This document shows positions 1,598 to 18,390 of a stretch of 18,390 bases of DNA, piece by piece; within the stretch, counting starts at the first letter, position 1; every line of letters begins with the position of its first letter. Location of the stretch: NCBI GenBank assembly GCA_043822705.1, contig JBDRBK010000029.1, positions 1 through 18,390 of the forward strand, given 5' to 3'. The stretch is from Fidelibacterota bacterium (GTDB taxonomy: Bacteria > Fidelibacterota > Marinisomatia > Marinisomatales > TCS56). The position numbers and the translations under genes are program-made. The notes under the pieces were generated by a model. It was given only the letters and a program-made list of their open reading frames with translations. It did not search any database and was not told the DNA's origin.

Positions 1598-1686
1598 TAT
1601 AGTCCACCCTCCTTGAATAGTGGAAAATATAGCTTTAGTTTACGTCACTAAAACCGCTGACGCAAATTTCTTTTCGGTGCCGCCGG

Positions 1687-2109: not shown

Positions 2110-2198
2110 GATGATTAAAATTCCGCTTTTCCACTAATAATGTCAACCATAGCTTAATATGTTATGTTAACGGCAATCGTTCTAAATTTTGACCATAA

Positions 2199-3020: not shown

Positions 3021-3058
3021 ACCGGAGGTCGGGGAAAACTTTATTTAAAGAGGGAAGT

Positions 3059-3505
3059 ATGTCGTTATTCGACACGATTCAACAAGACATGTATGTCGCT
3101 ATGAAAGCCGGTGAAAAGGCCCGGGTGGCGACGCTGCGGGTGGCCCTGGCGGGCCTCAAGGATAAGCGCATCGCGGCCCGCGGCGATATCAGCGCCGCCG
3201 ATGAAATCAAGGTCCTGCAGACCCTGGTGCGGCAGCACCACGAATCACTGGAATCCTACCGAGCCGGCGGACGCCCCGATCTGGTGGCGTTGGAGGAAGC
3301 GGAGTTGGCCGTATTGACGGCTTATCTGCCGAGCATGCTTTCGGAGGCGGAAGTACGTTCCCTGGTTACGGATGCAATTGCCGAAACCGGCGCCGCCGGT
3401 ATGTCGGACCTGGGCAAGGTGATGCCGCTGGTAATGCAGCGGGCCGCCGGACGGGCGGACGGCAAACTGGCTCAGGCGCTGGTGCGGGAACTGCTGGCGG
3501 GCTGA
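3059..3505 (+). CDS. GatB/YqeY domain-containing protein
   Basis: MSLFDTIQQDMYVAMKAGEK...YRAGGRPDL...E..VL..YLP...A.GMSDLGKVM...GRADGK is typical of YqeY. Start taken at ATG 3059 after GAGGGA rather than the ORF-track start at 2912. Confidence 0.9.
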   Translation: MSLFDTIQQDMYVAMKAGEKARVATLRVALAGLKDKRIAARGDISAADEIKVLQTLVRQHHESLESYRAGGRPDLVALEEAELAVLTAYLPSMLSEAEVRSLVTDAIAETGAAGMSDLGKVMPLVMQRAAGRADGKLAQALVRELLAG

Positions 3506-4083
3506 TGATCCTGTTCCTGGACGGATTGGCGGTTTTTCTGGTGCTGGTGCTGGCGCTGGTCGGCTTTCAGCGCGGGTTTATCGAAGAACTGGGCCGCCTG
3601 ATCGGACTGGTTGCGGCAACGCTGGTGGCCTTGCGCTATTACCTGCCCTTTGGTCAAATGATCATCAATCGGTCCAGCCAGGATCCGCGCTTTACCCTGG
3701 TGTTAAGTTTCGGAATTCTGTTTATCGTCGTGCTGGTAACCGTACGGCTATTGACGCGGATGATCCGGATCATGCTGCTGGCCCGGCACACGCGGGTGGC
3801 TGACCGCAGCCTGGGCCTGATTTTTGGTGCCGGCAAGGGCGGCGTCATCCTGGCCTTGGCGGTCTGGCTGGTAGCGCTGGCCCCGGACAATTCCTGGACG
3901 CAGATTATTCGCAGTCAGTCCCGGTTATACCAGCCGCTGGCGAGCGGCCGGTTGGCCGTGATCCGGTTGTTCCGGCTGGATGACGCCCTGGAAAAAGGGC
4001 AGAATCTGATCAACCAGTGGCTGGCCGCCGAGGTGGTTGACCGCGATCAGCAGTTACTGAATACAACCGAGGAAATGGAATAG
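3505..4083 (+). CDS. CvpA family (colicin V production) membrane protein
   Basis: N-terminal LD...GFQRGFIEE, several hydrophobic helices and DRSLGLIFGAGKG. Overlaps the upstream stop (TGATG). Confidence 0.88.
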   Translation: MILFLDGLAVFLVLVLALVGFQRGFIEELGRLIGLVAATLVALRYYLPFGQMIINRSSQDPRFTLVLSFGILFIVVLVTVRLLTRMIRIMLLARHTRVADRSLGLIFGAGKGGVILALAVWLVALAPDNSWTQIIRSQSRLYQPLASGRLAVIRLFRLDDALEKGQNLINQWLAAEVVDRDQQLLNTTEEME

Positions 4084-5855
4084 TGGCTCGCATCGCCCCG
4101 GATGTAATCGATCGCGTCCGCGATACCGCCGACATCGTCGAAGTGGTGCAGCAGTATGTCAATCTGACCAAACGCGGCCGCAATTATTTTGGGCTGTGTC
4201 CGTTTCATCACGAAAAGACCGCTTCATTCAGCGTGGCGCCGGACAAGAATATCTACCACTGTTTCGGCTGCGGGGCCGGCGGGACGGCGATCAATTTCCT
4301 GATGGAATACGAAAAAATCAGCTTCGTGGAGGCAGTCCAGAAGCTCGGTGACCGCTACGGCATCAAGGTCGAAGCGGAGCAGGGCGACGGCTCGCGGGAA
4401 CTGTTCAGCCAGTTATACGAATTGCACGAGCTGGCCACGGAAGTCTATCATAAACTGCTGTTGTCGACCAGGGGTCAGGCAGCGCTGAAATATCTGCAGG
4501 AGCGCGGTCTGACCTCGGAACTGCTCCAGGAATTCCGGATTGGCTTTGCTCCCGACGCCTGGGATACGCTGATTACGGAAGCCGGAAAGCGGGAATTTTC
4601 GACCGAAGTGCTGGCGAAATCGGGCCTGTTTACTTTCTCGGAAAAAGGCCGTTTCGACCGCTTCCGGTCGCGGATCATGTTCCCGATCGCCAATGCGGCC
4701 GGCCGGGTGATTGCCTTTGGTGGCCGGATTTTTGGCGCCGAGGATCCGGCCAAATATCTGAATTCCCCGGAAACGCCGCTCTACCACAAGAGCGATGTGC
4801 TCTACGGCCTGCATAAAACACGTGAGGCGATCCGCGCCGCCGGCAGCCTGATCTTGGTCGAAGGCTACATGGATTTTCTGACGCTCTACCAGGCCGGGAT
4901 CACCAATCTGGCGGCGGTCTCGGGCACTGCCCTGACCGAACGCCACGCCGTTCAGATTCACAAGGTTGCCAGCAAGGTCTATCTGGCCTATGATGGCGAT
5001 CAGGCCGGTATTACCGCCACCTTGCGGGCCGGTTATGCCCTGTACCGCGGGAACGTGGAACCGCTGGTGATCCCGGTGCCGGCTGACAAGGATCCCGACG
5101 ACTGGGTCCGCGAAGCCGGGCCAGCAGCTTTTCGACAGGTGCAGGAACGAGCCAGCAGTCTGGTGGATTTCCAACTGGATGTCAAAAACGCCGATCAGCT
5201 GACCGGTGTCGAACTGTCCCAGTTTGTCGGTGAGCTGCTGGGCGAGGTGGGGGCGATCGAGGATGGCATTTTGCGCGGTGAAATTCTGCGGCAGATCAGT
5301 CAGCGTCTGAGAATCGAGGAAACGGATCTGTTGCAGGTGCTACAGAAACGTTTGCGGCGACGCGTGCCGGAGATCGATCCGGAGCCACCACCCGATCAGG
5401 CGCCGCTGGAATTCACCAGCCGGCTGCAGAAAGCCCAGGTTGAAATTGTCAAAATGCTGGCAACCGGACAGGCCGATGCCCGCCAGTTTGCCCAAGAACA
5501 TCTGGATCTGAAGATATTTACTGAACCATTGCTGAAAAAACTGGCCACGGAACTTTTAAAAACAGATTCGGCCAGCAGTCTGGCGGCAGTCGTTGATCAG
5601 TTTGAAAAAAAGAGTGAACGCGAAGCGGCGGCCCGAATCCTGTTTGCCGAATTTTCGCTGGAACTGACCGACCCGGTACCGTTAGTCCGGGAATGCCTGA
5701 TTACGATCCGCAAACACCCGATCCGGGAAAAAATAAAACAGTTGCGGTTGGCCCTGCGTGAGCGCGAAGCGTCCGGCCAGGATACGCTTAGCCTGGAGCG
5801 GGAAATCAATGGCTTGCAGCAGGATTTGCAGGCTTTGGCCGGAGCTTACGACTGA
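4083..5855 (+). CDS. dnaG: DNA primase
   Basis: Zinc finger CPFHHEKTASF...CFGC, DRFRSRIMFPI, FGGR, KYLNSPET, TOPRIM VEGYMD and YDGDQAG, KDPDD. GTG start overlaps the upstream TAG. Confidence 0.97.
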   Translation: MARIAPDVIDRVRDTADIVEVVQQYVNLTKRGRNYFGLCPFHHEKTASFSVAPDKNIYHCFGCGAGGTAINFLMEYEKISFVEAVQKLGDRYGIKVEAEQGDGSRELFSQLYELHELATEVYHKLLLSTRGQAALKYLQERGLTSELLQEFRIGFAPDAWDTLITEAGKREFSTEVLAKSGLFTFSEKGRFDRFRSRIMFPIANAAGRVIAFGGRIFGAEDPAKYLNSPETPLYHKSDVLYGLHKTREAIRAAGSLILVEGYMDFLTLYQAGITNLAAVSGTALTERHAVQIHKVASKVYLAYDGDQAGITATLRAGYALYRGNVEPLVIPVPADKDPDDWVREAGPAAFRQVQERASSLVDFQLDVKNADQLTGVELSQFVGELLGEVGAIEDGILRGEILRQISQRLRIEETDLLQVLQKRLRRRVPEIDPEPPPDQAPLEFTSRLQKAQVEIVKMLATGQADARQFAQEHLDLKIFTEPLLKKLATELLKTDSASSLAAVVDQFEKKSEREAAARILFAEFSLELTDPVPLVRECLITIRKHPIREKIKQLRLALREREASGQDTLSLEREINGLQQDLQALAGAYD

Positions 5856-6760
5856 TGAGAAATCTTTGCCTGCCAGGTTTGCTGCTGGGGTGCGCGCTGC
5901 TGCTGGCGCAACCGGCCGACAGCCTGATCGTAAAATATTTTCCCACGGAATTAACCCGTGGTATGATTCTGGATCAGGCCAGCGACTACCGCAAGGTCAA
6001 AAACGGACCACATTTCCGGGCCTACTATTCGCCCCAGGGGGATTTGATTCAGGTCGAATATGTCCCTGCACCGGGCGATCGCTCCGACCAGCCGCCGCCT
6101 GTAGCTAAAACCGGCCCGCGCCAGCATTTCAGCCAGTGGAATCCCTGGCAACGGAAGCTGATCGGTCCGTTAGCAGCCAACGAACTGTCCGGCCGGCGGC
6201 ATTACGCTGTGGAATTTGATAAGCAGGGACAAATCAGCAGGATCGAATTTGTCAATGGCGGCGGTAAACCGCAGTGGACCTACCATGTACGCTGGAATCA
6301 GGCGCATACGCGGTCGGTCTACCAGGTGGAATTTCATGTACACCAATCGTTGCTGGCGCTGGACCGCTTCCTGTTTGCCAGTGAGCTATGTGAAATGCGG
6401 CCGGGCTGGACGGCCCTGTTCGAGTTGCGCCGGGACGGGCGGCCGCAAAAAGTTGAGATTCAGGACGACCATGGACAATCAATGTATTTTTACCGTTTTA
6501 CTTATGGCAAGGATGGTCCCACGCGGATTATTTCCGCCGATTATTTCCGATCCAACCGCGTCTTGCTGGGCTGCCAGGAACTGTATTTCGCACCCGGCAG
6601 CAGCCGGCCCAACCGGATTGATTACCTGGCGGCCGACCGCCGGTTGAAGAAGTCGGTCACTTATGATTGGGACACCGAGCGCGCCGAGGTTACGGTGACG
6701 GAAACCGACGCTGGTGGGTCCCTGCTCGGACGGCGGGTCCTGAAAACGACCCTGAATTAG
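5855..6760 (+). CDS. Hypothetical secreted protein (signal peptide; aromatic/beta-hairpin-rich)
   Basis: 301-aa ORF coupled to dnaG by TGATG; N-terminal MRNLCLPGLLLGCALLLAQ signal-like segment; family not recognised. Confidence 0.7.
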   Translation: MRNLCLPGLLLGCALLLAQPADSLIVKYFPTELTRGMILDQASDYRKVKNGPHFRAYYSPQGDLIQVEYVPAPGDRSDQPPPVAKTGPRQHFSQWNPWQRKLIGPLAANELSGRRHYAVEFDKQGQISRIEFVNGGGKPQWTYHVRWNQAHTRSVYQVEFHVHQSLLALDRFLFASELCEMRPGWTALFELRRDGRPQKVEIQDDHGQSMYFYRFTYGKDGPTRIISADYFRSNRVLLGCQELYFAPGSSRPNRIDYLAADRRLKKSVTYDWDTERAEVTVTETDAGGSLLGRRVLKTTLN

Positions 6761-6775
6761 CGGGACCGGCCGGAA

Positions 6776-7390
6776 TTACAGGATACTTTTGATCTCGGCG
6801 ATAATCTTCGCCAGCCGCGCTTCGTCGGTAAATATATTGAAGTGATCGGTTTCCAGCGTCAGCACCGGCAGATCTTTAATCCCCTTGATCCAGCGGTCAT
6901 AGGAGATATTCAAGCGGTGCAGGTACTGCGGATCGATGGTTTTTTCATAATCACGGTTACGGCCTTTGATCCGCGTCAAAAGGGTGTCGGTGCCGGCCCG
7001 CAGGTAAACGATCAGGTCCGGTCGGCGCAGGTAGGCCGTCATCACGGCGAACAGGTGGCGGTAGTTATCCCAGTCGCGCTGGTCGATATGGCCCAGTTCG
7101 TGCAGGTTGTTGGCGAAGATTTCCACATCCTCGTAGATCGTCCGGTCCTGGATTACGCCGCCGGTCTCGGCGGCGATTTCCCGCTGGTGGCGGAAGCGGT
7201 GGTGCAGGAAATAGATCTGCAGATTGAAGGCCCAGCGTTGCATGTTGCCGTAAAAATCACTTAAGTAGGGATTATCCGCCACCGATTCGAAGAATGGCTT
7301 CCAGCCCATGCGTTCGGCCACGATTTTGGTGAAGGTCGTCTTGCCGACGCCGATATTTCCGGCGACGCCGACGAAAGGGGTTTTAAGCAT
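6776..7390 (-). CDS. Deoxynucleoside kinase (dNK family)
   Basis: P-loop VAGNIGVGKTT, ESVADNPYL..FY, LQIYFL..RF, DRTIYED, PDLIVYL, RIKGRNRDYE. ATG at 7390 preferred over TTG at 7393. Confidence 0.93.
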   Translation of the reverse strand: MLKTPFVGVAGNIGVGKTTFTKIVAERMGWKPFFESVADNPYLSDFYGNMQRWAFNLQIYFLHHRFRHQREIAAETGGVIQDRTIYEDVEIFANNLHELGHIDQRDWDNYRHLFAVMTAYLRRPDLIVYLRAGTDTLLTRIKGRNRDYEKTIDPQYLHRLNISYDRWIKGIKDLPVLTLETDHFNIFTDEARLAKIIAEIKSIL

Positions 7391-7421
7391 CAAATCTTCC
7401 TAATTGGGCTTAATCTGTGGT

Positions 7422-7470
7422 TAAAACATAAAAACAGAAAGGCTTCCCCTGAAAGCGGAAGCCTTCCTGT
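7422..7470 (-). terminator. Rho-independent terminator downstream of the TonB-dependent receptor gene
   Basis: Minus strand reads ACAGGAAGGCTTCC-GCTTTCAGG-GGAAGCCTTTCTGT followed by TTTTATGTTTT, ~20 nt after the receptor stop. Confidence 0.8.
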
Positions 7471-7489
7471 CTATTTATAAATCTGATTC

Positions 7490-10400
7490 TTAGAAATTAA
7501 ACCGGAAACCCACTAGTACCTGCCAGCGCGATTCGAAGTCCGAAGTGGACAGGACCGACTCCGGGTCATCGAATTGGAAGGTGGGAATACCGGCCGCCGT
7601 GCCGCCGGCGAAGCTCTTATACTTCAGCAATTGGTAGGTTCCAAACGGCATGTACTCTACCTGGCCCCATTCGTTATTGAGCAGGTTGGCGAAATTCAGG
7701 ATGTCCACGGTCAATTCGAAATTCCGCCCCACCGGACTAGCGATTTTCTGGGATATCCGCAGATCGATACGGTTATTCCAGGGTTCACGAGCGGCGTTGC
7801 GTTCGAAGATCTTACCTTTGTATTCGCTGAGGAATTCGTCGTTAGCGACGAATTCTTCCCAGGCGTCCCAGGCGTCGACATTGTTAACATCGACAATATT
7901 GACTTCAGTTTCGTCATCGTAGACGAAGATCAGGTCGTTATCCTTGCTGCCATCGCCGTTATAATCGTAACTGGAGGCGTAGATGTAGGAGTACGGAGAA
8001 CCAGACTTGCCTTCGTAGAATAACGAAACGGTAGTGGGTGCGCCTGGCAGCAGTTCGATCGCTTGATTCAAACTCAGAATCAGGCGGTGCGGAAGCTCAT
8101 ACAGCGAACTGGTCAGTCCCGGGTTGTTGGTGTTCAGGCCGATCGGGCTATAGCGCCAGTTGGATTTGGCCTGGCTGGAGGTCAGGCTGTTAATATCCTT
8201 GGACTGGGAGTAGGTGTAAGCCAGGCTGGCCCGGGTGGCCCCCAGGGCGGTTTTCCAGTTGCCGCTGAGGCTGCCGGTCAGGCTGTATTGATAGCCTTTA
8301 GCGGTATTGGTTACGTACATCACTTCCAGGAAATTGCTGCTTACACCATATTTGGCATAATGGTCGCGGCCGTCGGCCATCGTCAAATCCTTGACGGCGT
8401 TTAGTTGCTTGTAAGTCACCTCGCTCAGGTTTTTACTGTACAGGAACTCGATCCCGGCTTTCAGGTTGAAGGGCAGGTTGTGTTCGACGGCCAGGTTGGT
8501 GCGCAATACCCGCGGGAACATCAAGTCCACATCGACGACATCGATCTCGGACTTCTGGTAACCCAGGTCGGGATCAAGGTAGTGATCGTACTGGTCGTCG
8601 AGATCGGTCAGGATTGCATCGGCACCGCTGTCATAGATCGTTTTCAGTAACACGCCGCTCATGCTGAAGTTATTCGACAGCCAGACGAATTTAGGCGAGC
8701 CCGAGAAGATACCGATGCCACCCCTTAGTAGCGTCTCGTTTTTATCCAGGAGCCGATAGTTGAAACCGAGACGGGGTGAAAAATGCACGTTGCCACTGGG
8801 CATCTGATCGGTTTTGATGTCCTGGTCACCGAAGTACTTGGCCACCGAGTCGTTGGCCAGTGGCGTATCCGGGAAAACCGGAATATCGAACCGGACGCCG
8901 GCCGTCAGCCGCAGCTGGTCGTTTACATCCCAGATATCCTGGGCGTGGAAGCCGTAGATGTTGGCCTTCCATTCCGCCATCGGCTGGGGATCACCATCCA
9001 CGGCCGAGTAGGTCAACTCATAGGTGGCAATATTGCCCTGCTCAAGGTCAGCCACGCTGTCAAACCAGTAGGTCCCATTGTAATTGCGGAAGAACCCGTT
9101 GCTCATGAAGTAAAACTCATTGTGGGTACCGACGGAAAAGGCGTGGTCGCCGGTGTAATAGGACAAATTATTGGAAAGCTGGAAGATATTCTGGTCCAGC
9201 TTATTACCGAGCGAGTACTGCTCGGCGCCGCCATAAATCCGGGTATTACCAGCACCGTAGACGATGAATGTCGGTGATCCGGAATCCTCCGATTCCCGGA
9301 AATCGCGGATCGTGGTATAGCCCAGGGTGAAGGTGTTGGACAGGTTCTTGGACAGGCTGCTGTACAGGTGCAGCATGGTCGAGTTCTGCTTGTGATTGAA
9401 GATATAGCCGGCTTTGGAAAAGTAAAAATTATACGGGCTGCGGGCATTGATATCATCCTTGGCGCTAATGAAATTGTGGCGCAGCGACAGGCGGTGCCGG
9501 TCGTTGATATTGTAATCGATTTTCGCCAGGATTTTGGTACTGGGCGTTTCGGCATCGAATTGCTTACTGCCGCCGGTGGTGGCGCCATAGACATTGGTCA
9601 GGATGCTGTCGACCCGCTGGACTTCCGCGGCGGACCCGGCGAAGGCCTGGGCCGAACTAGTGTCCAGGCTGATCGTATTGGGCGTGATACTCTGGCTTAA
9701 TTCGGCACTCACGAAGTAGTGCAGTTTATCGGGGATGAGTGCTCCGCCCAGCCGCGCCCCATAGACCTTTTCCGAAAATTCGGGGTACTCATTAACCGTA
9801 CCATCGGCTTCTTCGAAAGCACCGATAAAAGCCTCATTGCGCATGGAGGTGTAGACCGATCCTTCGAGTTGGTTGGAGCCGCTGCGGGTGACAGCATTTA
9901 AGGCACCACCGGCAAAACCGCTGTGGCGCACGTCAAAGGGCGCGACCATGACCTGAATTTCTTCGATAGCGTCTAAGCTGACCGGCTGTGTTCCCGCCTG
10001 TCCGCCGGGGAGGCCATTGTCCGCCAACCCGAAGACATCATTCAGTACGGCGCCATCGATCTTGACCGTGTTATAATTGGGATGTTTACCGGCGATCTCG
10101 TTACCATTGACATTGGCCGCCAGCCGGGTCATGTCATAAATGCCACGATTGACATTTGGCATGGCGTCGATCTGAGCGGTCGAAATTGTGGCCGATTGGC
10201 CGGTGCTGGCGCTGCGGGCATCGGCGATTACATCGATACCGGCCATTTGCAACGCTTCTTCCACCAGTTGCAGGTTCAGCTGCAGGTTTTGTCCCAGGGA
10301 TAGCATGATATCTTCGACTACCTCCGGTTTATAACCGATGTAATTAACCGTCAGTGTGTAGGGACCACCGACGCGCAGGTTGGGAATATTAAAATTACCA

Positions 10401-10612
10401 TCGTCGCGGGATATCGATCCGAAGATAATACCACTGGGATTGTGCTTGGCCATGATATTGGCACCGGCCAATGGTTCGTCGTTTTGACTGACAACATTGC
10501 CGCTGATTGAAGCGGTCGTCAGGACTTGCCCGAAGGCCAGGAACGGCAGCGTTAGAACCAGTAAAAACAGTCCCAACTTGTAGGTCTTTCCACAGGTTGT
10601 TAAGCGATTCAT
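7490..10612 (-). CDS. TonB-dependent outer-membrane receptor (Oar-like) with N-terminal carboxypeptidase-regulatory-like domain
   Basis: Start at ATG 10612 (MNRLTT...) with AAGGAG at 10619-10624, then a signal peptide, ISGNVV...EPLAGANI...GNFNIPNLRVGGPYTLTV, plug motifs (IDGAVLNDVFG; VSLDAIEEIQV...FDVRHSGFAGGALNAVTRSGSN) and C-terminal GFRFNF; 1040 aa. Confidence 0.92.
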   Translation of the reverse strand: MNRLTTCGKTYKLGLFLLVLTLPFLAFGQVLTTASISGNVVSQNDEPLAGANIMAKHNPSGIIFGSISRDDGNFNIPNLRVGGPYTLTVNYIGYKPEVVEDIMLSLGQNLQLNLQLVEEALQMAGIDVIADARSASTGQSATISTAQIDAMPNVNRGIYDMTRLAANVNGNEIAGKHPNYNTVKIDGAVLNDVFGLADNGLPGGQAGTQPVSLDAIEEIQVMVAPFDVRHSGFAGGALNAVTRSGSNQLEGSVYTSMRNEAFIGAFEEADGTVNEYPEFSEKVYGARLGGALIPDKLHYFVSAELSQSITPNTISLDTSSAQAFAGSAAEVQRVDSILTNVYGATTGGSKQFDAETPSTKILAKIDYNINDRHRLSLRHNFISAKDDINARSPYNFYFSKAGYIFNHKQNSTMLHLYSSLSKNLSNTFTLGYTTIRDFRESEDSGSPTFIVYGAGNTRIYGGAEQYSLGNKLDQNIFQLSNNLSYYTGDHAFSVGTHNEFYFMSNGFFRNYNGTYWFDSVADLEQGNIATYELTYSAVDGDPQPMAEWKANIYGFHAQDIWDVNDQLRLTAGVRFDIPVFPDTPLANDSVAKYFGDQDIKTDQMPSGNVHFSPRLGFNYRLLDKNETLLRGGIGIFSGSPKFVWLSNNFSMSGVLLKTIYDSGADAILTDLDDQYDHYLDPDLGYQKSEIDVVDVDLMFPRVLRTNLAVEHNLPFNLKAGIEFLYSKNLSEVTYKQLNAVKDLTMADGRDHYAKYGVSSNFLEVMYVTNTAKGYQYSLTGSLSGNWKTALGATRASLAYTYSQSKDINSLTSSQAKSNWRYSPIGLNTNNPGLTSSLYELPHRLILSLNQAIELLPGAPTTVSLFYEGKSGSPYSYIYASSYDYNGDGSKDNDLIFVYDDETEVNIVDVNNVDAWDAWEEFVANDEFLSEYKGKIFERNAAREPWNNRIDLRISQKIASPVGRNFELTVDILNFANLLNNEWGQVEYMPFGTYQLLKYKSFAGGTAAGIPTFQFDDPESVLSTSDFESRWQVLVGFRFNF

Positions 10613-10896
10613 GATAGTCTCCTTTAGATATGATTGATCGCAGGCTGAATTGCCGTGGGGCGAGTAATCGGCGCAGTGATTAGCTGATGGATGCTTGGCA
10701 GAAGGTACATTTGTTTCCCTAATCCGATTATGAAATTCGGATTCTATTGCATACTGAACAACATAAAACATGCTGGGATTGGGCGTTGGCAAGCGGCGTA
10801 AAAAAGGTGAGAAGTCTACTGTTGTGATCGAATTTTCCCGGGGAAAATGAGCCATCTGATTTCACGGGAAGACACTGCCATCGACGGATGTGAACA
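10595..10896. repeat. 302-bp imperfect direct repeat, copy 1 (first codons, RBS and upstream region of the receptor gene)
   Basis: Aligns without gaps to 15110-15411; 26 mismatches by manual count (~91% identity). Confidence 0.95.
10832..10848. promoter_or_regulatory. Perfect inverted repeat ATTTTCCC-G-GGGAAAAT, candidate regulator or recombinase binding site
   Basis: 8-1-8 palindrome, identical in repeat copy 2 at 15347-15363. Function is inferred. Confidence 0.4.
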
Positions 10897-11442
10897 GTGA
10901 GCTAATTAAATATACAGATTACGGTGATTTCCTGATTTTTGAACATATAGCTTAATCCATTCTCGAACATAATGTAAAAGTAATTGATCCGTACAACCTT
11001 CCCTCAGCAAGAGTAATCAACAAACCATTTCAACCAGTAACCTTGAAAACAATTTTGTAAATCCCCATCCAGGAATGGGGGAAATTAAATTTATATATAA
11101 CGGTTGTAATCTCAATTTCATCAATGTGTCGTTGCTCGCGCGCGCGTGCGCGTTCCACAAAACTGCATATTTACTGGAAATTTTTCGATCTCGTGTTATT
11201 TGAATATTAGAGCTAACGCTCAAGTGGCATGTGAATTCATACTTAAAAAATTAGCAATGTGCTAAAAAACCCCTAATTTCTTCTGTGCCAGGAGAAGCAA
11301 GGCCTTTTGGACCTCGCAACTTTATATTGCCTGAAATAATATATAATATACATGTATTATGATTTATAACTTTAAAGAACCGAAGTCAGTCCTATAAGCT
11401 GTTGTAAAATAAGATGCAATCCAAAAATAATTCAAAATTTCC

Positions 11443-11469
11443 TTTACTATTATATAATTTAATAGTAAA
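11443..11469 (+). promoter_or_regulatory. Candidate -10 box/operator of the terminase operon
   Basis: TTTACTATTA-TATAATT-TAATAGTAAA: a perfect 10-bp inverted repeat with consensus TATAAT (11453-11458) in the spacer, ~40 nt upstream of ATG 11500. Confidence 0.5.
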
Positions 11470-11499
11470 ATATACTAGTCAAAATAATGGAATTTTTAT

Positions 11500-12342
11500 A
11501 TGGGGTCCGAACAAAACAAAGCGGCTAAAAAAAATCAGATAGTTAAATCTGTGGAAGCGTCTGGCAGTCTAATGAAGGCGGCGCAAGTAAGTGAAATTGG
11601 ACAATCTACGTTGGAAGAATGGCGCCGGAAAGACGAAGAATTCAATGCCACTTTGGAACGCGCGATGAAAAACCACCACGATCGGCAGATTGAAAAGCTA
11701 GCTACGATTGCTGAAAAACTTATCGATGTTGCCGGGGAAGCGCTGGAAGAAAAAAAATATCAGGTAAAAACCACCAGCCGGGAGACAATTTTCAATCGGC
11801 GAGATGAAATTACTGGCTACCGCGAATGGGAGACAGTGAAGGAAAAAATCCGCGAGCCCAATATTTTGGCTGTGCTGAAAATTTTAACAGAAATCAACAA
11901 TTCGTTGCTCGGGCAGTATTCATTCATGTTAAATAATGATCGAACGATCCGGGAACAGTTAGTTGGGCCATCTGGGTCTTCATTTAACACTGACGAAACG
12001 CCGATGTGGATATTAAGTGAAAAAATAGACCTAAATCGTATCCGGTGGATGCAAGCCCAGACCCAGTCGCTTTACGACAAAGGCCTGATTACTGACAATG
12101 AGTACCGCAAGCGTACTATCGAAGAAATCAAGCTGTCGCAGGAAGTACTCAGTCATATCGAAACGCGCACAAAGGCAGAATTTCAGGGCAAGACCCTTTT
12201 TGATGTCCGCAATGACGTGCATGCGATTCTCAACCTACACCATAATCTGATTCGACAAGCGATCGGGAATACTAATGTCAAACGCGAAGGCATTTTTACT
12301 GAATTTCAAAAACTTTTAAAGGAGCATCTAGAAAATGACTAA
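11500..12342 (+). CDS. Putative terminase small subunit-like HTH protein
   Basis: N-terminal HTH-like GSLMKAAQVSEIGQSTLEEWRRKDEEFNATLERA resembles TerS/phBC6A51-type HTHs, followed by a helical/coiled region and a beta-hairpin-like segment ending EPN..A. It lies directly upstream of, and overlaps, the terminase large subunit gene. Confidence 0.65.
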   Translation: MGSEQNKAAKKNQIVKSVEASGSLMKAAQVSEIGQSTLEEWRRKDEEFNATLERAMKNHHDRQIEKLATIAEKLIDVAGEALEEKKYQVKTTSRETIFNRRDEITGYREWETVKEKIREPNILAVLKILTEINNSLLGQYSFMLNNDRTIREQLVGPSGSSFNTDETPMWILSEKIDLNRIRWMQAQTQSLYDKGLITDNEYRKRTIEEIKLSQEVLSHIETRTKAEFQGKTLFDVRNDVHAILNLHHNLIRQAIGNTNVKREGIFTEFQKLLKEHLEND

Positions 12343-14383
12343 AAACTTTGAATACCTGATTAGTGCGGAGAATAATCCCAAAGATCGGATCTGGTGCATC
12401 CAGCCAGTAGGGGCAATAACGTTCATCGAGCAATTTATTGGAACAATGACACTATCCGACCCGCAGAAAGAAGTGATCGGAAGTATTTTTGGTGATGACC
12501 CAACAAATCAATTCTTCCAGGTTGAGCAAGCCATATTACGGATTGGACAGGGTGGCGGAAAGAATTTTCTAATAACTCGGTGTGTCGTGTATTTTATATA
12601 TTTGTGGTGTTGTCTGGAAAATCCACATCGATATTTCAACTTGGCGGAAAACGAGCATTTTGACATTCTAAATTTTTCTCAAGTCAGCGCTCAACAGGCT
12701 AAGAATGTGTTTTTCAAGTCATTAGTCAGTATTTTAAAGCTCACGAAAGATCCACTCAGCGGCAAGAATTGGTTTGAAAGTAAGGCGGGTTTTAAAATTA
12801 AAGCTTATGGCAGGGGTGATATTAAAGACAAGGAATTGATCATTCCAAATCGACGACCGGGATTGGGAAATATTCGAGTATTTTGCCTAGATATGACAGC
12901 CAAGTCTGTTGAGGGATACACAATCTGGGTCTCGATAATGGACGAACCCAGTCGCGCCAACACCCGAGCAAAATATACTGTTGCCAAGCACCAGTATCAG
13001 ACGGCTTATAGCAATCAAAAGACCCGATTCACAAATCCTCATCACCGCTGCACGATAGTATTTGCTTATCCGGAACAAGAATATTTTGATCTCTTGATCG
13101 AGCTATATAATACTTATGCAAAGAATCCCCGTGAAAACAGCTGGGAAATGGAAGCTAACATCCTGACTGCATGGTACGACACCTTTGTTTTTAATGCAAA
13201 AGACCAAGCTGATAAAAAATTGGCCTACGAGATGGCTTATCGCCATGACCCGATTGATGCGGATCGACGGTGGAAGGCAATTGTGCCCCCCAGCATTGAC
13301 AGCTTTTTCACACCGTATGAAAATAAAATTGTCGAATGTGCTAATCCTGACCTAGTTAATCCGATTAAATACCGCGAAACAATTACTAGACGTGTGGAAA
13401 AAGTTAATGGCCGGGACCAATACTGTTCATACACTGCTCTGGAACCGTTGGAAATTCAGGGGGATCACAGGGAACGTTTTTGGGGTGGAGATTTTGCTAT
13501 CAAAAAGGATCGTCTCGTTATTGTTGGTGGTTACGCGACTCGATCATTGCTGGAGATAAACAAATTTACTGATATGAGCAGAACCCCGTCTGGTGTTGAG
13601 GAGGTAAAGGAGCAATTGATTAATTGCCGTCCAATCATTGATACAATTTTGATTTGGGAAGTCAAACCGGGTGGTTATGCGATCGATTACAGTAATGTCG
13701 ATTATTTTCTAACTGAATTGATTAAACATCATTTTTCGGGAACACGGGCAATTCACTTCGACAAATTTAATACGGAAAGTACACGCCAAAAAATTCTCGA
13801 TCGGGTCACTAAAGATTGTGAAAGTCTGAGCTTTACGAATGCGCAGCAGGTATCCTACGGACGACTGGTACGGTACCTGGTCATAAATAACGCGATCGAA
13901 TATCTCGACAATGATTTACTGCAGCAGGAAATGAAACAACTGATCTTCGAAAATCAAACCAAGCTTGATCATCCTCCAGGCGGTTCGAAGGACGTGTGGG
14001 ACGCCTTTAGTATTTGCGTGAATTTGATTATCACGAAAAATCGCTGGAGTTCAGAACCGCGAGTTGATATTGGTGAATCCGATGAATCCGATGCAATTGA
14101 AGACAACTATGACGAAAGAATGCGAATCTTCAATCTGGCTTTCAAGAATTTCGTAAATACACATGGTCGTCAACCAAGGGATGATGAAGAATTACGCGAG
14201 TGGTTGTTTAAAAGTTATAGCACAAAATTCACCCTGCAGGAAGTTCAGTATTTCAAGCAACATCGCAGCGAATGGGAGAGCTCAGGTCGGGGGAAAATGG
14301 CGATGTTGGGTTTAACGTCGCCAAGCAGGAGGACTGGGTGTGAGCTCGATTATTTTTCTGTTGATGATCCCTGGTCCTTTTAA
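12335..14383 (+). CDS. Phage terminase large subunit (ATPase + RNase H-like nuclease) with C-terminal extension
   Basis: Adenine-binding LSDPQ, Walker A-like GQGGGKN, QQAK..FF, EGY, Walker B IWVSIMDE, coupling-motif position FAYP. Nuclease acidic motifs WGGDFAIKKD, IHFDKFN and LDHPPGGSKDVWDA. AAGGAG RBS at 12319-12324; start overlaps the upstream stop. Confidence 0.85.
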   Translation: MTKNFEYLISAENNPKDRIWCIQPVGAITFIEQFIGTMTLSDPQKEVIGSIFGDDPTNQFFQVEQAILRIGQGGGKNFLITRCVVYFIYLWCCLENPHRYFNLAENEHFDILNFSQVSAQQAKNVFFKSLVSILKLTKDPLSGKNWFESKAGFKIKAYGRGDIKDKELIIPNRRPGLGNIRVFCLDMTAKSVEGYTIWVSIMDEPSRANTRAKYTVAKHQYQTAYSNQKTRFTNPHHRCTIVFAYPEQEYFDLLIELYNTYAKNPRENSWEMEANILTAWYDTFVFNAKDQADKKLAYEMAYRHDPIDADRRWKAIVPPSIDSFFTPYENKIVECANPDLVNPIKYRETITRRVEKVNGRDQYCSYTALEPLEIQGDHRERFWGGDFAIKKDRLVIVGGYATRSLLEINKFTDMSRTPSGVEEVKEQLINCRPIIDTILIWEVKPGGYAIDYSNVDYFLTELIKHHFSGTRAIHFDKFNTESTRQKILDRVTKDCESLSFTNAQQVSYGRLVRYLVINNAIEYLDNDLLQQEMKQLIFENQTKLDHPPGGSKDVWDAFSICVNLIITKNRWSSEPRVDIGESDESDAIEDNYDERMRIFNLAFKNFVNTHGRQPRDDEELREWLFKSYSTKFTLQEVQYFKQHRSEWESSGRGKMAMLGLTSPSRRTGCELDYFSVDDPWSF

Positions 14384-14639
14384 ATTTTAGCGTTTTGTAA
14401 TAGTGTTTATAACTTGCTAATACCTGTTGGCCTGCCACAGGATCAGAGAGTTGGTTTTGTTTTTTTATTCGAAGCGAACCGCACGCATAAAATAGGAGTT
14501 GTGGGGCCGTGAATTCTGGTCAGATGGATATTCTGTTGGAACAGTGAGAGGGAGAAGTAATTGAGGATATTTTAGACACCCTGCAGCTTGCCGCCAGCAG
14601 GCAGGGATGGGGTAGTTTGCGAAAATATGGGCACGACGC

Positions 14640-14850
14640 AATAAACCATGACAGTCTTTCTTTACACCGAATCAGTTTACGCAGGACTGTTTATAAATTG
14701 TTCAAGAAGATGGCCCGCATTGATGATTACGAATTATTTATTAATGACTCGGGCGATGTTTTATTGCGGCCAGTAATTGGAATGCCGACTTACGAGAAAT
14801 GGTTGCATGAAACTCCAAATGCAACGCAAGATGGTTTTGCTGAAATAGAT
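14640..14850 (+). pseudogene. Possible decayed small antitoxin/AbrB-like gene fragment
   Basis: Segment HRISL...YELFINDSGDVLLRPVIGMPTYEKWLHETP resembles small 'G-x-I-L-L-x-P...P-x-x-E-x-W' antitoxin-like proteins. No good in-frame start (ATG 14648 is out of frame) and the tail looks non-coding. Boundaries are approximate. Confidence 0.35.
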
Positions 14851-15109
14851 ATGTCTTATAGGATCCCTCACTCCCAAAACCAGGGCTGTCATCCCGGCGG
14901 CCCTGTTTTCTATTGTAGGCCCGGCCAATTGCCGGAACCTCCAATAGCTGGTGCCCCATAGCCGGTGTAGCAATATAGAAAAGGAGGCTTGATCATTCCC
15001 GAGGCTCTGAATAAAGGGATTTTTGTTTACCAAATACATAGGAATTCTATTTACCGAATAGATGGGAAACATCCTTGTTATTTACACCCAAGCGGCGGGC
15101 GGTTCCTAT

Positions 15110-15411
15110 GGTTGTTAAGCGATCCATGATAGTCTCCTTTAGATATGATTAATCGCAGGCTGAATTGCAGAGCGGCAATTAATCGGCGCAGTGATTAGCT
15201 GCTGAACGCTTGGCAGAAGGTACATTTGTTTCCCTAATCCGATTATGAAATTCAGATTCTATTGCATACTGAACAACATAAAACATGATCGGATCGGGCT
15301 GGGGCAAGCGGTGTAAAAAAGGTAAGAAGTCTACTGCTATGATCGAATTTTCCCGGGGAAAATGAGCCATCTGATTTAACGGGAATACAGTGCCATCGGC
15401 GGACGTGAACA
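15110..15411. repeat. 302-bp imperfect direct repeat, copy 2
   Basis: See copy 1. Retains AAGGAG and ATG (15127, minus strand) but is followed by unrelated sequence after MDRLTT. Confidence 0.95.
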
Positions 15412-15854
15412 CTAAAAAACCACACACACTATCCTACTTACTGAAATCTTAACCTACGGTGTATTTTGCAGATCATTTTCAATTGATTTCACTAGTTTTT
15501 TACGCTCTTTTTCCACTGTTTTTTCTCCGACCGTTCTAAAATGAACTAAAATGGGGTACCACCACTTGTTTTACGCTCAGCCCCATCCGGTGTTTTGTCG
15601 TCAGTAAATGCTAATTTTGCCAGTTTTTCAGAATCTGTCAATTCTGCCTTAAATACACTCTAGCTGATTTTGATGTAGATGGAATATTCTGGTCCTTCTT
15701 TGGTATCTTCTTTGGTTATACGAATAAAGTGTTTTCCGTTGTTTTTTTAGCCAATCAATGGGGGCAAGTCAGCGGATTTGGGACTTTAAAACCCCACCTG
15801 AATTTTAAGACAACGTTTTTTGGACGGAGAGAATAAAATTATCAGATTATTGCT

Positions 15855-15911
15855 TGTAATATTGTTTGCATAAACCTGAGATATATGACATATTCCGTAA
15901 ACGATATTACA
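15855..15911 (+). promoter_or_regulatory. Candidate abiE promoter with inverted-repeat operator
   Basis: Arms TGTAATATTGTTTGC (15855-15869) and GTAAACGATATTACA (15897-15911) match at 13/15. TTGCAT-17 bp-CATATT with an upstream TG overlaps the left arm and the spacer. Confidence 0.55.
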
Positions 15912-15917
15912 GGATTC

Positions 15918-16691
15918 ATGAAGCCAATCGATTACATAAGAGAGTTAAATAATAGCGGTATTTGGAGTTTTACTTTCGAAGAGGCACAAAGTAGCTTGGG
16001 AAAGGATATCACTGCCGCGATCAGGACATTGCGTAAAAAGAACCGGATAATTGATCCAGCCAGGGGATTCTACGTAATTATTCCGGAAGAATTTAGTATT
16101 GCAGGTCGTCTGCCTGCAGAACGTTTCATAAATGAATTAATGAAGTTTTACAGGGCACCCTATTATATAGGATTACTGACCGCGGCCTCTTTTTATGGAT
16201 CAGCTCATCAAAGTCCGCAAGTGTTTCAAGTAGTCACCAATCCTTCCAGAAGAACCATTCATTATGGTCAGAATAAGATAGTATTCTACCGGAAGAAGAA
16301 TGTGGATTCAATACTAACGGATAAGCGTAAGACCCTGACCGGATATGTGAACATCTCTACCGTTGAAACCACATTTTTTGATATGATACAGTTTAACCAG
16401 AGGATTGGCGGTTTGGACCATGTTACATTAGTTGCATCCGAATTGGTCGAACGGTTTTCTGTGTCTAGTTTAAAGGAAGTAGCCATGACTTTCCCGCTGC
16501 CCATTATTCAACGGGGAGGTTATCTCCTTGAGGTTATTGGTTTTGAAAAGGGAACAGCCGTATTAGAACGTTGGATTCGAAATCAATGTCCCATTTATAC
16601 CTACTTAAATCCTTCTAAGGGTAAGCTTAGAGAACCAAAGCACGATCGCTGGAAGTTGATCATAAACGATAAACTAGATTATTCAGAGTGA
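15918..16691 (+). CDS. Type IV toxin-antitoxin system AbiEi-family antitoxin
   Basis: FTFEEA...RGFYVIIPEE, YYIGLLTAASFYGSAHQSPQVFQV, ISTVETTFFD...GGLD, QRGGYLLE and RWKLIIN are typical AbiEi-family motifs. Start placed at ATG 15918 (AGGA upstream); alternative ATG at 15885. Confidence 0.88.
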   Translation: MKPIDYIRELNNSGIWSFTFEEAQSSLGKDITAAIRTLRKKNRIIDPARGFYVIIPEEFSIAGRLPAERFINELMKFYRAPYYIGLLTAASFYGSAHQSPQVFQVVTNPSRRTIHYGQNKIVFYRKKNVDSILTDKRKTLTGYVNISTVETTFFDMIQFNQRIGGLDHVTLVASELVERFSVSSLKEVAMTFPLPIIQRGGYLLEVIGFEKGTAVLERWIRNQCPIYTYLNPSKGKLREPKHDRWKLIINDKLDYSE

Positions 16692-17181
16692 TTCCACAGG
16701 CATTCATAACAGAATGGCAAAATATTGCCCCCTGGCAACGTGACGTTCAGATCGAGCAGGATTTGATCATTAGCCGAATGTTGGTAGAAATCTATGGTAA
16801 TGAATTTCTACGGGATCAGCTGTTATTCAGAGGTGGTACCGCTTTGTACAAGCTATTCTTCAAGAAGCCTCTTCGATACTCCGAAGATCTCGATTTTGTC
16901 CAATTAAATGCCGGCCCGATCAAGCCAGTTGTAAAGGCCATTCAACAACTAATAGATCCATGGCTAGGGAAAAGCAGCACGGAACCAAGGAAAGATGGTT
17001 TTAGAATTTATTATCGCTTTCAAGCTGAGTCGGATCCGGAGCAGACTGCCAAGATTAAGGTGGAAATCAATACACGGGAACATTTTATGGTATTCCCCAA
17101 TGAGGAGATCAAATATGACGTTGATTCTCAGTGGAATAAGGGTAATAGCTTAATAATGACTTACCCAATTGACGAATTAGC
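16688..17181 (+). pseudogene. AbiEii/AbiGii-family nucleotidyltransferase toxin, interrupted by IS3-family element
   Basis: MIPQAFITEW...PW...QIEQDLIISR, LLFRGGTALYK, RYSEDLDF, KIKVEINTRE. Similarity ends at YPIDELA where the IS end begins (17182); read-through stop at 17212 lies inside the IS. Confidence 0.88.
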
Positions 17182-17216
17182 TGATCTTGCAACAAAAAAA
17201 CGGACAGTATGAGAAG

Positions 17217-18089
17217 TCATACAGCTTGTTTGTAAGTTAATTGTTCAAATTGTTCCGGGGATTTGTATCCCAAGGCCGAGTGTTTCCTGAACCGATTGTA
17301 AAATACTTCCATGTATTCAAACAGGCTGGTTTTCGCCTGCGATCTGGTATGGTATGTCTGATGGTAAACCAGTTCGGTTTTTAACGTATGGAAAAAGCTC
17401 TCGGCTACTGCATTATCATAGCAGTTTCCTTTACCACTCATACTCCCGATTACTTTGAAAGTATTCAGCAAACCACGGAAGTCATCACAAGCATACTGGA
17501 CGCCACGATCCGAATGAAAGATGAGACCCGGTAATGGTTGGTAGCGTTTAACTGCCTGGATGAAGGCTGGGATAGTTGTCTTCTTCGCCGTCAGGCGGTC
17601 GCTCATGGACCAACCAACTATTTTCCGGCTGTAAAGATCCAGAATAATAGTCAGGTACAACCAGCCTTCCATGGTTCTGATATATGTAATGTCAGATACC
17701 CAGATCCGGTGGGCTGAGGTAGTCCAAAAATCCTGATTCAGTAGATTAAATGCTATCGGGTAAGAATGATCTGAGTTGGTTGTTACCTTGTACTTTTTCT
17801 TCGTCTTGGCTTCGATTCCGTTCGCTCTCATGAGTCTGGCTACTCTGGGACGGCTGCAAAAATATCCCATATCATGCAGGTCATCGGTAATCCGAGGACT
17901 ACCATAAGTACGATAACTGCGCTCATGAATATTCTTTATCTTTTTAATCAACAACCTATTCTCTGAACATTGTTTGCTATCCGGCCGATCCAGCCAATCA
18001 TAATATCCGCTCCGACTTACTTTCAATACCTGGCACATTTTCCCCACCGTAAATGCGGAGCAATGTGTTCTGACAAACACGTACTTCAT
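17217..18089 (-). CDS. IS3-family transposase OrfB (DDE integrase core)
   Basis: VSRSGYYDW, YGSPRI, WVSDITYI (D), DLYSRKIVGW, FHSDRGVQY (D), GNCYDNAVAESFFHTLKTE (E), YN..R.HSALGYKSP. Confidence 0.95.
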   Translation of the reverse strand: MKYVFVRTHCSAFTVGKMCQVLKVSRSGYYDWLDRPDSKQCSENRLLIKKIKNIHERSYRTYGSPRITDDLHDMGYFCSRPRVARLMRANGIEAKTKKKYKVTTNSDHSYPIAFNLLNQDFWTTSAHRIWVSDITYIRTMEGWLYLTIILDLYSRKIVGWSMSDRLTAKKTTIPAFIQAVKRYQPLPGLIFHSDRGVQYACDDFRGLLNTFKVIGSMSGKGNCYDNAVAESFFHTLKTELVYHQTYHTRSQAKTSLFEYMEVFYNRFRKHSALGYKSPEQFEQLTYKQAV

Positions 18090-18390
18090 CGGCGTGTTTT
18101 TCCCGCCTGACTGTCGGGCCGGGAGAAAATGGCCAAGGCTTTTTTTAATATGTCGCGCTCTTCCTGTAAAGATCTGTTCTCACGTTCCAACCGGCGTATC
18201 TTATCTTGATCGGGATCACTTAAATATCCGGAACCAGGAAAAGCATTTTCTTTATTCGCTTTGTATGCGCTCTTCCAGCGGTACAACAGTTCCGGGCGGA
18301 TACCTAAATCTCCAGCAATTTCTACCATCGCTTTGGAACTATGTAAAGCAAATTCAATAGACTCCGTTTTAAACTCCTTCGTGAAACGTC
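18086..18390 (-). CDS. IS3-family transposase OrfA (HTH), 5' partial
   Basis: Frame is open to the window edge: RFTKEFKTESIE...EIAGDLGIRPELLYRW...LERENRSLQEERDILKKA. Stop overlaps the orfB ATG (ATGA). Confidence 0.92.
   Translation of the reverse strand, partial: RFTKEFKTESIEFALHSSKAMVEIAGDLGIRPELLYRWKSAYKANKENAFPGSGYLSDPDQDKIRRLERENRSLQEERDILKKALAIFSRPDSQAGKTRR
18139..18146 (-). other. Programmed -1 frameshift motif A AAA AAA G of IS3 orfA/orfB
   Basis: Minus strand TTA AAA AAA GCC. The -1 frame is open into orfB (KSLGHFLPARQSGGKNTPMKY), and a GC-rich potential stem (TCCCGGCCCGACAGTCAGGCGGGA) follows. Confidence 0.75.

Follow-up and report, generated by a model that had tools for sequence, protein, structure and literature searches.

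Phage terminase genes bracketed by two copies of a receptor gene's 5' end in a Fidelibacterota genome: a possible stranded remnant of gene-end-restoring integration

The stretch of DNA analysed here (the window; 18,390 nt) is one whole 18.4-kb contig of a 3.3-Mb metagenome-assembled genome (MAG) of Fidelibacterota, which consists of 218 contigs with 6% contamination, and the whole arrangement described below is known from this one short-read contig. From our analysis of the window, a receptor gene, a segment with phage terminase genes, an AbiE gene pair, and an IS3-family transposase were predicted to lie side by side [Table 1]. The N-terminus of the receptor is signal-peptide-like as judged by eye, and its start at 10612 is confirmed by the homologues, which begin with MNR[LI]; the best matches among 30 relatives are only about 34–44% identical. 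With an open frame throughout and an N-terminus like those of its homologues, the gene has an intact 5' end, in line with the preliminary description of this DNA.

Table 1. Features of the window in order of position.
Feature	Coordinates	Strand	Remarks
Oar-type TonB-dependent receptor gene, 1040 aa	7490..10612	-	Pfam OMP_b-brl_4 5.5e-48, CarboxypepD_reg 1e-18, TonB_dep_Rec_b-barrel 1.7e-7
Receptor codons 7-14 at copy A	10572..10594	-	CCCAA (10572-10576) and a strongly differing 18-base patch (10577-10594)
Repeat copy A	10595..10896	-	~284 nt of leader/promoter region, RBS, ATG, codons 1-6 of the working receptor gene
AT-rich spacer without a supported gene	10897..11499		11001-11500 is 32% GC
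Small terminase subunit-like gene (TerS), 280 aa	11500..12342	+	phrog_1482 1.7e-7, phrog_4044 2.7e-6
Large terminase subunit gene (TerL), 682 aa, full length	12335..14383	+	Homologues, invariant columns, tblastn
114-aa ORF	14617..14961	+	Terminator-like hairpin 14881-14915 inside its tail
110-nt module	14977..15086		Different context in X1 and X2 contigs; meets receptor-derived DNA at its right end
Receptor-type codons 7-14 (IGTARRLG) on copy B	15087..15109	-	CCCAA at 15087-15091; X2 receptor contig fits with at most 3 differences in 23
Repeat copy B	15110..15411	-	Displaced leader, RBS, ATG, codons 1-6; heads only a 26-codon frame (15047-15127)
AbiEi antitoxin gene	15885..16691	+	Pfam AbiEi_1 7e-28
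AbiEii toxin gene, shortened to 174 aa	16688..17212	+	Pfam AbiEii 2.7e-20, profile positions 3-142 of 238
IS3-family transposase, two frames, incomplete at the contig end	17217..18388	-	Pfam rve, HTH_21, rve_2, HTH_Tnp_1

The terminase genes are bracketed by two gap-free direct repeats. Our recount gave 276 identical positions of 302 (BLAST E 2.4e-119), in accordance with the 26 mismatches counted earlier, which divide into 13 transitions and 13 transversions and leave perfect blocks of 46, 38, 33, 26, and 22 nt. On the minus strand, both copies run through AAAGGAG and ATG into MNRLTT (copy A) or MDRLTT (copy B), so the earlier identification of the unit as the upstream region, RBS, and first six codons of the receptor gene is upheld; copy A supplies these to the open receptor frame. 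A search of the genome for additional copies found only these two, and the repeat had no match in 60 related genomes, none of them close. Exact-pattern scans with 25–31-mers of the leader and of the 110-nt module also gave 0 hits in genome contigs and 0 in viral contigs. A transposon target-site duplication and a multi-copy dispersed repeat are both ruled out by 302 bp at 91% identity in only two copies, the former as the preliminary description had argued from the length. Its statement that the repeats lie away from tRNA genes also holds, as none was found in the window.

The leader itself has the look of non-coding DNA. A long frame through it is open in copy A but contains a stop in copy B, and almost every difference would be an amino-acid change; a coding role was hence rejected, and the substitution pattern appears to be non-coding. 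A known structured RNA leader (riboswitch or similar) was likewise rejected, with 0 Rfam matches at E <= 1 over the whole window and no compensatory change among the 69 predicted pairs of an alignment fold, in which two sequences have no power.

Between the repeats, the identification as phage terminase genes is borne out by the PHROG matches of TerS and by the PF27249 homologues and tblastn matches of TerL. TerS overlaps the start of TerL by 8 nt, and the TerS-TerL order recurs in related loci. TerL has 51 other homologues (PF27249 is precomputed for 51 of the 52 listed proteins, and intein/HNH families for three), retains every invariant column of a 21-sequence alignment, and gave tblastn matches to 217 cultured phage records, of which the 8 listed are annotated as terminase with E down to 1e-25. 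A homologue 53% identical to it (locus L094) matches phrog_9 at 7.8e-10, whereas the window's TerL itself does so weakly (0.0045); a profile search of PDB sequences gave no match. In the spacer ahead of TerS, five weak promoter-like sites (11331–11488) face the gene, and a 68-aa ORF (11017–11223) belongs to no family. The ORF at 14617–14961 has no Pfam/NCBIfam family at E <= 1 and no homologue, so that a resemblance to an AbrB-type antitoxin found no support.

Of the four related loci scanned with at least 5 kb downstream, three (L013, L015, and L094, not L020) encode a portal and a minor head protein, and no portal, head, or other genes of this phage group were found in the insert or elsewhere in the MAG. 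Among the ORFs of the insert (10897–15086), neither Pfam nor PHROG detected an integrase, excisionase, or serine recombinase; the window's contig has no PF00589 or PF00239 match, and the tyrosine recombinases of the genome are confined to four other contigs (C110, C163, C30, and C165). The DNA between the repeats is AT-richer (41.5% GC) and has no recognisable integrase, as first described, and it is a phage fragment without portal, head, and recombinase genes rather than a self-contained cassette. PICI-type phage satellites are small elements with their own small terminase, without capsid and tail genes, and with integrase, replication, and regulation modules. The insert resembles them in being a small inserted element with terminase genes and no capsid or tail genes. 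Membership in this group is unsupported, as only TerS, TerL, and unsupported small ORFs were found, with no integrase, replication, or regulation module.

A GC content of 41.5% against 52.7% genome-wide, the TerS/TerL pair, and the portal and head genes downstream in related loci indicate that the insert is foreign and phage-derived, as judged from composition and homology. The retention of all invariant columns in TerL indicates either a young insert or selection that maintains its genes, and the 9% divergence of the repeats is therefore most likely older than the entry. The GC shift coincides with the repeat (1–10594 is 56.5% GC), and the AT-rich stretch continues past copy B (15412–17216, 39.6% GC) through the AbiE genes up to the transposase, 1.8 kb right of copy B, whose IS end recurs on two other contigs (C156 and C198).

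This change of composition at a repeat, in a whole 18.4-kb contig of a MAG with 218 contigs and 6% contamination, would also be produced by an assembler that joined two strains, or phage and host, through a common leader. The window was compared with four metagenome runs, all as contigs only, two of which (X1 and X2) are used below. The X1 contigs have no or few differences from the window; being short pieces of low depth, they cover the region in fragments only and span none of 10896|10897, 15086|15087, and 15411|15412, as an artefact would also have it. Across the contigs of all four runs, in which much of the insert is uncovered, there was no joint linking the repeats, no circle junction, and no contig skipping the insert; the sole joint listed lies inside the IS. 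Against a false join, the longest exact block between the copies is 46 nt, and the final k-mers of common metagenome assemblers are longer than this; only 5 bases are common at 15086|15087, where a k-mer mis-join is unlikely; and an X1 contig without differences reaches from the receptor start into copy A (10451–10777). We therefore regard an assembly artefact as quite improbable. A 249-nt X2 contig is identical to 14614–14862 and may come from the window's own strain at low depth.

The edges of the repeats are sharp, though unequal. Upstream, the match drops to chance (11 of 64 in 10897–10960). Into the coding sequence, 10572–10594 and 15087–15109 still agree at 12 of 23 positions, and beyond them the match is at chance (17 of 72). 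The innermost five bases, CCCAA, are common to both sides (5/5; 10572–10576 and 15087–15091), whereas the 18-base patch between them and the repeat is only 7/18 identical to copy B's side; a weaker homology therefore reaches codon 14 and ends there. Run X2 holds a receptor gene ~92% identical to the window's (91–97% per contig piece), and its 736-nt contig joins a window-like receptor body to copy-B-type codons 7–14. Over these codons, X2 differs from copy B at no more than 3 of 23 positions, and copies A and B differ at 11; the 263 nt of receptor gene adjoining the patch are ~93% like X2, an estimate from counts. Since the X2 gene has its variant of codons 7–14, copy B is an authentic, displaced receptor 5' end, and with two copies only and receptor-type codons through 14 it is not a dispersed element. 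It is the 18-base patch of copy A beside CCCAA that deviates. In the proximal 133 nt of the leader, X2 differs from copy A at 11 positions and from copy B at 12; being equally far from both, it is silent on which leader is the host's. Its leader sites are mixed (4 A-like, 3 B-like, and 3 neither), and beyond −115 the DNA upstream of the X2 receptor, on a short contig, is in register with a weak match (15–16 of 30).

The 14 receptor-type codons of copy B would also be expected if no circle had been involved and copy B were what is left of another receptor gene in tandem, or of an earlier duplication at the locus, that had its body replaced in the course of a phage insertion or deletion between the 5' ends, an alternative that the preliminary description listed among its refuting conditions; a region that is a patchwork of foreign DNA, with AbiE and IS3, would suit such a history. 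We consider this improbable. No further copy of the leader and no close paralogue was found in the genome, the relatives' best matches are as distant as given above, and two independent breaks would be needed to keep both 5' units whole. The junction of copy-B-type codons to this very receptor's body in X2 points to alleles rather than paralogues.

The left flank of copy B's coding end is the 110-nt module, which is found in a 284-nt X2 contig (with 1 difference) and in a 218-nt X1 contig, both with unlike flanks, and of which there is no second copy in the genome. Because the contigs of both runs share the module exactly to 15086 and then carry other flanks, 15086|15087 is confirmed, as far as contig comparison reaches, as a true module boundary and recombination joint. 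A reading of the module as a truncated gene start was rejected, since the 46-aa ORF at 14989–15129 matched 0 of 1.84 billion representatives and nothing credible in Pfam. The module also contains a 17-nt direct repeat (15026–15042 and 15050–15066), of which these are the only two copies under a pattern derived from them; for that reason, it was given no weight as arm-type sites.

We tentatively read the bracket as what remains, stranded, of an integrative phage-like element that came in by site-specific insertion at the 5' end of a gene and supplied a new 5' end in its place, a possible history that we hold at somewhat below an even chance. In this scenario, a phage circle would have entered by one site-specific crossover at receptor codons 13–14. 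The look-alike leader and first codons on this circle would be the ones in use by the receptor gene today, and the former 5' end (copy B) would have been displaced by 4.5 kb. The element would then span ~10577–15086, bounded by the common CCCAA, with copy A belonging to the element and copy B to the host. Its integrase and the rest of the phage would have been lost by internal deletion, or the integrase may have acted in trans. What remained would be a pair of att sites around DNA with no recombinase gene, in other words a "grounded" prophage or a CIME-like state. On rare occasions, RecA could still recombine the two copies, which would remove the insert and fuse the leaders into a hybrid. That the repeats are sharp-edged and unique to the locus supports site-specific insertion, and a homology running from codon 14 through the RBS to ~284 nt upstream would be exactly what is needed to restore a 5' end after a gene-internal crossover. 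The copy-B-type codons of X2, the joint at 15086|15087, and the phage origin of the insert also speak for it. Against it, there is no recombinase gene on the contig, the contigs of the four runs yielded no empty-site allele, and a common core of 5 bases is short. The temperate habit of the phage group is unsupported by two related loci (L013 and L015), which have no integrase within ±10 kb of TerL; the one record searched whole was L094, a 10-kb fragment. A second island must also be assumed, because the DNA right of the supposed host copy B is itself AT-rich and carries AbiE and IS3.

The preliminary description had a circle with a homologous copy of this region enter by a single homologous crossover. 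Entry of a circle with a look-alike region by one crossover fits the repeats and the displaced 5' end, whereas the edge at codon 14 favours a site-specific event; as the homology stops there beside a diverged 18-base patch, site-specific exchange fits better than RecA exchange within the repeat. A RecA-type crossover inside the 302 bp, by a circular phage-derived fragment carrying ~320 bp from the receptor 5' region of a related strain, is in our view unlikely, although it is the main rival. The proximal part of copy A would then be host DNA and its distal part element DNA, with the opposite order in copy B. Such a fragment could have captured host DNA by aberrant excision, as specialised transducing phages do, and 15086|15087, with the module found elsewhere beside other flanks, would mark where the captured DNA ended in an illegitimate joint. 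The recombinase gene is absent, as RecA exchange would allow, and the perfect blocks available are near or above the minimum length for it; the mixed leader sites of X2 also fit mosaic copies. On the other hand, the host's own codons 7–12 would be the aberrant patch (7/18) even though the adjoining 263 nt are so like X2, and a patch abutting the end of the captured piece is left unexplained. The homology, moreover, covers just the unit needed for restoring the 5' end, and recombination between 302-bp sequences with 91% identity should seldom occur.

Site-specific insertion at a gene end has known counterparts, to which the locus can be compared. Phage 21 integrates in icd of Escherichia coli. 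Likewise, e14 in icd leaves a 163-bp icd' (icdC) copy (PMC6379469), and its excision makes a chimeric gene (PMC6379469, PMC13626634). As these papers present it, e14, like our insert, is a phage-derived element in a protein-coding gene with a replacement end, a displaced original end, and long, slightly differing repeats. It replaces the 3' end, whereas here it would be the 5' end with the RBS and ~284 nt upstream; it still has its recombinase and leaves the chromosome upon SOS induction, whereas no recombinase was found here and any excision would be hypothetical. The repeats here are also longer (302 vs 163 bp) and 9% diverged. PMC6379469 also places Rac at the 5' end of ttcA, where the N-terminus varies between strains with and without the prophage, and this site-specific integration at a gene's 5' end is what we propose here. 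Rac is a 23-kb cryptic prophage of a cultured host with defined attL and attR, whereas the present element would be a 4.5-kb fragment with packaging genes only and a putative att core, in a MAG of uncultured Fidelibacterota/Marinimicrobia.

According to PMC5704250, IMEs insert at gene ends, the 5' end being a rarer target than the 3' end, and one of the flanking repeats contains the end of the gene; in streptococcal ICEs/IMEs, a newcomer integrates into the att copy with that gene end, giving tandem arrays. Such tandem accretion at att sites could be the origin of the AT-rich AbiE island right of copy B. CIMEs descend from ICEs/IMEs and owe their mobility to a related ICE that is resident; the present insert contains phage packaging genes, neither a partner element nor an integrase to match was found, and the assembly has no third copy of the repeat. 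As in gene-end-restoring elements, foreign DNA is flanked by repeats, the intact gene carries one of them, and the other is a displaced gene end, whereas an element-encoded site-specific recombinase beside the att site was not found. As in a CIME-like element or grounded prophage, both repeats are whole and the recombinase is absent, the repeats being putative att sites.

A bolder interpretation would make TerS-TerL a minimal, integrase-less mobile packaging cassette that rides on a portable receptor promoter-leader and signal-peptide start, each entry or exit swapping the control region and N-terminus of the receptor. We consider it highly improbable; if true, a phage-derived element would retune an outer-membrane protein that is possibly itself a phage receptor, with superinfection control as a consequence. 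The case is likely a known and fairly ordinary route in a little-studied bacterial group, with no new class of mechanism. What would appear to be new here is the homology reaching codon 14 and CCCAA, the copy-B-type allele in X2, and the 15086|15087 boundary backed by two runs. If our reading of a stranded, site-specifically inserted remnant holds, the locus would be a clean case of gene-end-restoring integration at the 5' end, the rarer variant, where the promoter-leader and first codons of the gene arrive with the element. For Fidelibacterota (SAR406/Marinimicrobia), an uncultured group without a genetic system, the repeat and its CCCAA joint would then offer an att-like probe for temperate phages and islands, and the two leader alleles a natural pair for the study of receptor control.

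Both copies of the gap-free direct repeat claimed in the preliminary description were recovered, with 276 of 302 positions identical and the 26 mismatches (13 transitions and 13 transversions) scattered over the unit. On the minus strand, the ribosome-binding site (AAAGGAG), the ATG and the first six codons of the receptor gene (MNRLTT or MDRLTT) are present in both copies as described, and the start of the gene was set by homologues beginning MNR[LI]. Identity is at chance immediately beyond the upstream edge (11/64); on the coding side, 12 of 23 positions beyond the repeat are still identical before chance is reached (17/72), and the homology terminates at a common CCCAA. Receptor codons 7-12 form an 18-base patch with only 7 identical positions in surrounding DNA of 91% identity, which may be a recombination scar. 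The recommended search for additional genome copies found two only in the source MAG (3.34 Mb, 218 contigs, 93% complete, 6% contamination; the window is all of contig C29). The unit was absent from the 60 related genomes searched, and its exact 25-31-mers had no match in genome_contigs or viral_contigs. No tRNA gene lies anywhere in the window, in keeping with the view that the repeats are not at a tRNA. The leader matches no Rfam family, and a fold of its two copies shows no covariation; it carries two short inverted repeats, possible operators or RNA hairpins, one of which has a C/T difference between the copies at one stem position with pairing retained as G-U.

Features of the repeat locus and its flanks
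Feature	Coordinates	Strand	Remarks
Lamin-tail + CARDB protein	2-1597		left contig end; secreted-looking
N6/N4 DNA methylase gene	2199-3020		adjoins low-molecular-weight phosphatase gene
301-aa ORF	5855-6760		between primase and deoxynucleoside kinase genes; signal-peptide-like start; no Pfam family
Oar-type TonB-dependent receptor gene	7490-10612	-	1040 aa; left of copy A
CCCAA edge	10572-10576 / 15087-15091		
18-base patch	10577-10594 / 15092-15109		
Copy A / copy B	10595-10896 / 15110-15411		
Leader stem-loop	within 10700-10870	-	7-bp stem, 3-nt loop around CCCCGGG; invariant in both copies
Second leader inverted repeat			7-bp stem, 9-nt spacer; also within 10700-10870, minus strand; ~120 nt upstream of ATG; both copies, with the C/T difference in its stem
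TerS	11500-12342	+	
TerL	12335-14383	+	682 aa
110-nt module	14977-15086		
17-nt direct repeats	15026-15042, 15050-15066		24 nt apart, in the module
Copy B frame	15047-15127 (15047-15411 with copy B)	-	
AbiEi/AbiEii gene pair			right of copy B
AbiEii toxin gene	from 16688 (tract 16688-18390)		shortened; ends at 174 aa (profile positions 3-142 of 238), exactly where IS3-family element starts
IS3 element			right of AbiE pair; terminates contig
IS end	17182-17321		recurs at end of contig C156; on contig C198 at 84% identity

The DNA left of the receptor gene (56.5% GC) encodes ordinary chromosomal functions, among them deoxynucleoside kinase, DnaG and YqeY, and the contig is AT-rich from the repeat to the right contig end (41.5% GC between the copies, 39.6% in 15412-17216; genome, 52.7%). 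The insert between the copies carries a gene resembling small terminases (phrog_1482 match, 1.7e-7) and a large terminase gene of full length; the remainder is an AT-rich spacer and some 700 nt in which no gene is supported. TerL has 51 homologues, and the precomputed family PF27249 is on 51 of the 52 proteins listed, TerL itself included. Among these 52, three homologues (P0009, P0011 and P0031) have an extra precomputed PF14890 and/or PF13392, which we take to be intein and HNH families, indicating that some terminases of the phage group have been invaded by inteins or homing nucleases. TerL retains all invariant columns of a 21-sequence alignment and matched 217 records of cultured phages by tblastn, with a terminase annotation on the eight matches listed (~26% identity, 80% of the query). 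Of the 11 closest loci, 8 share the TerS-TerL order. In the related phage loci L013, L015 and L094, genes for the portal and a minor head protein lie within a few kb downstream; in L020 they were not found within 5 kb downstream. Since such other genes of the related phages are absent from the MAG, the insert is a portion of a phage packaging module and not a self-contained element. The cassette had been described as lacking a recognisable integrase, and no tyrosine or serine recombinase is encoded on the contig; nor was an integrase seen near TerL in either of two related phage loci.

Copy B, comprising leader and 14 codons, is a true 5' end of the receptor gene that has been severed from its gene, which now uses copy A. 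In the metagenome run X2, a related strain's receptor gene is 91-97% identical per contig piece (differences 102/1311 nt, 14/406, 122/1572 and 37/419). Its 736-nt contig spans 10309-10727 in the copy A register, and when compared with 10560-15460 alone it is placed on copy B (15087-15242, 14 differences and one gap). Because the differences listed, 11 of the 14, all fall in 15124-15207, at most three are left for 15087-15109, where copy A departs from copy B at 11 of 23 positions; together with a G in X2 at 10577, the base of copy B, this indicates that X2 holds an intact gene in which the copy B variant of codons 7-14 (IGTARRLG) precedes a body resembling that of the receptor gene in the window. 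A lost tandem paralogue is a less likely source of copy B. In the proximal 133 nt of the leader the three sequences are about equidistant (differences A-B 10, X2-A 11, X2-B 12). Beyond -115 upstream, X2 falls below 80% likeness, the next 30 bases matching at 15-16 of 30 in register (null mean 7.5, sd 2.4), and copies A and B, identical at 153 of 169 distal positions, are far nearer each other than either is to X2.

The module abutting copy B is present in a 284-nt X2 contig (depth 11.6) and in a 218-nt contig of a second metagenome run, X1, with one difference each (~99%). On the other side the DNA of both contigs is unlike that of the window, and the X2 match stops exactly at 15086, which marks 15086|15087 as a true junction at which a discrete module meets DNA derived from the receptor gene. 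An assembly chimera is a less likely explanation of the arrangement. No empty site, circle joint or bridging contig was found among the contigs of the metagenome runs, which are short and give incomplete cover.

The layout of copy A, phage DNA and copy B is the one expected when a circle with a look-alike region recombines with the chromosome by a single reciprocal crossover. Entry as a circle by single crossover, as proposed in the preliminary description, is reasonable in outline as a hypothesis, but in place of the homologous mechanism attached to it we favour a probable site-specific crossover at the gene-internal CCCAA edge. The homology covers exactly what restoration of the 5' end needs, the sole strongly aberrant stretch, the copy A patch, abuts this edge, and repeats of 302 bp with 91% identity should seldom recombine with each other. 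The main rival is a RecA-type crossover inside the repeat, by an element that had captured host DNA when it excised aberrantly; this rival is consistent with the missing recombinase and with perfect blocks of 46, 38 and 33 nt between the copies, although it gives no account of the position of the patch. Under the favoured site-specific crossover, the element would span ~10577-15086, copy A would have arrived with it and copy B would be the former host 5' end. A host origin of copy B requires the AbiE/IS3 tract to the right to be a separate island, which could be explained by tandem accretion at a single att site; the third repeat copy that such accretion would give was not found in the assembly.

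Integrative mobilizable elements are described as integrating in the 3' end of genes and less often in the 5' end; the gene stays undisrupted because its end is contained in one of the flanking repeats. Tandem arrays form by accretion, and CIMEs have lost integration and transfer genes while keeping attL and attR (PMC5704250). Likewise, e14 in icd leaves a 163-bp icd' duplicate, and Rac occupies the 5' end of ttcA, where the N-terminus varies (PMC6379469); e14 excises by recombination of icd with the icdC fragment (PMC13626634), and prophages for which excision is no longer possible are termed 'grounded' (PMC6379469). The locus has the same layout as these described cases but lacks a recombinase, as a decayed remnant would, and by this analogy would be a further case of the known gene-end-restoring integration layout. 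Copy B retains its ribosome-binding site and start codon, although the frame it heads is just 26 codons long. Were its promoter active, antisense transcription into the terminase genes would follow.
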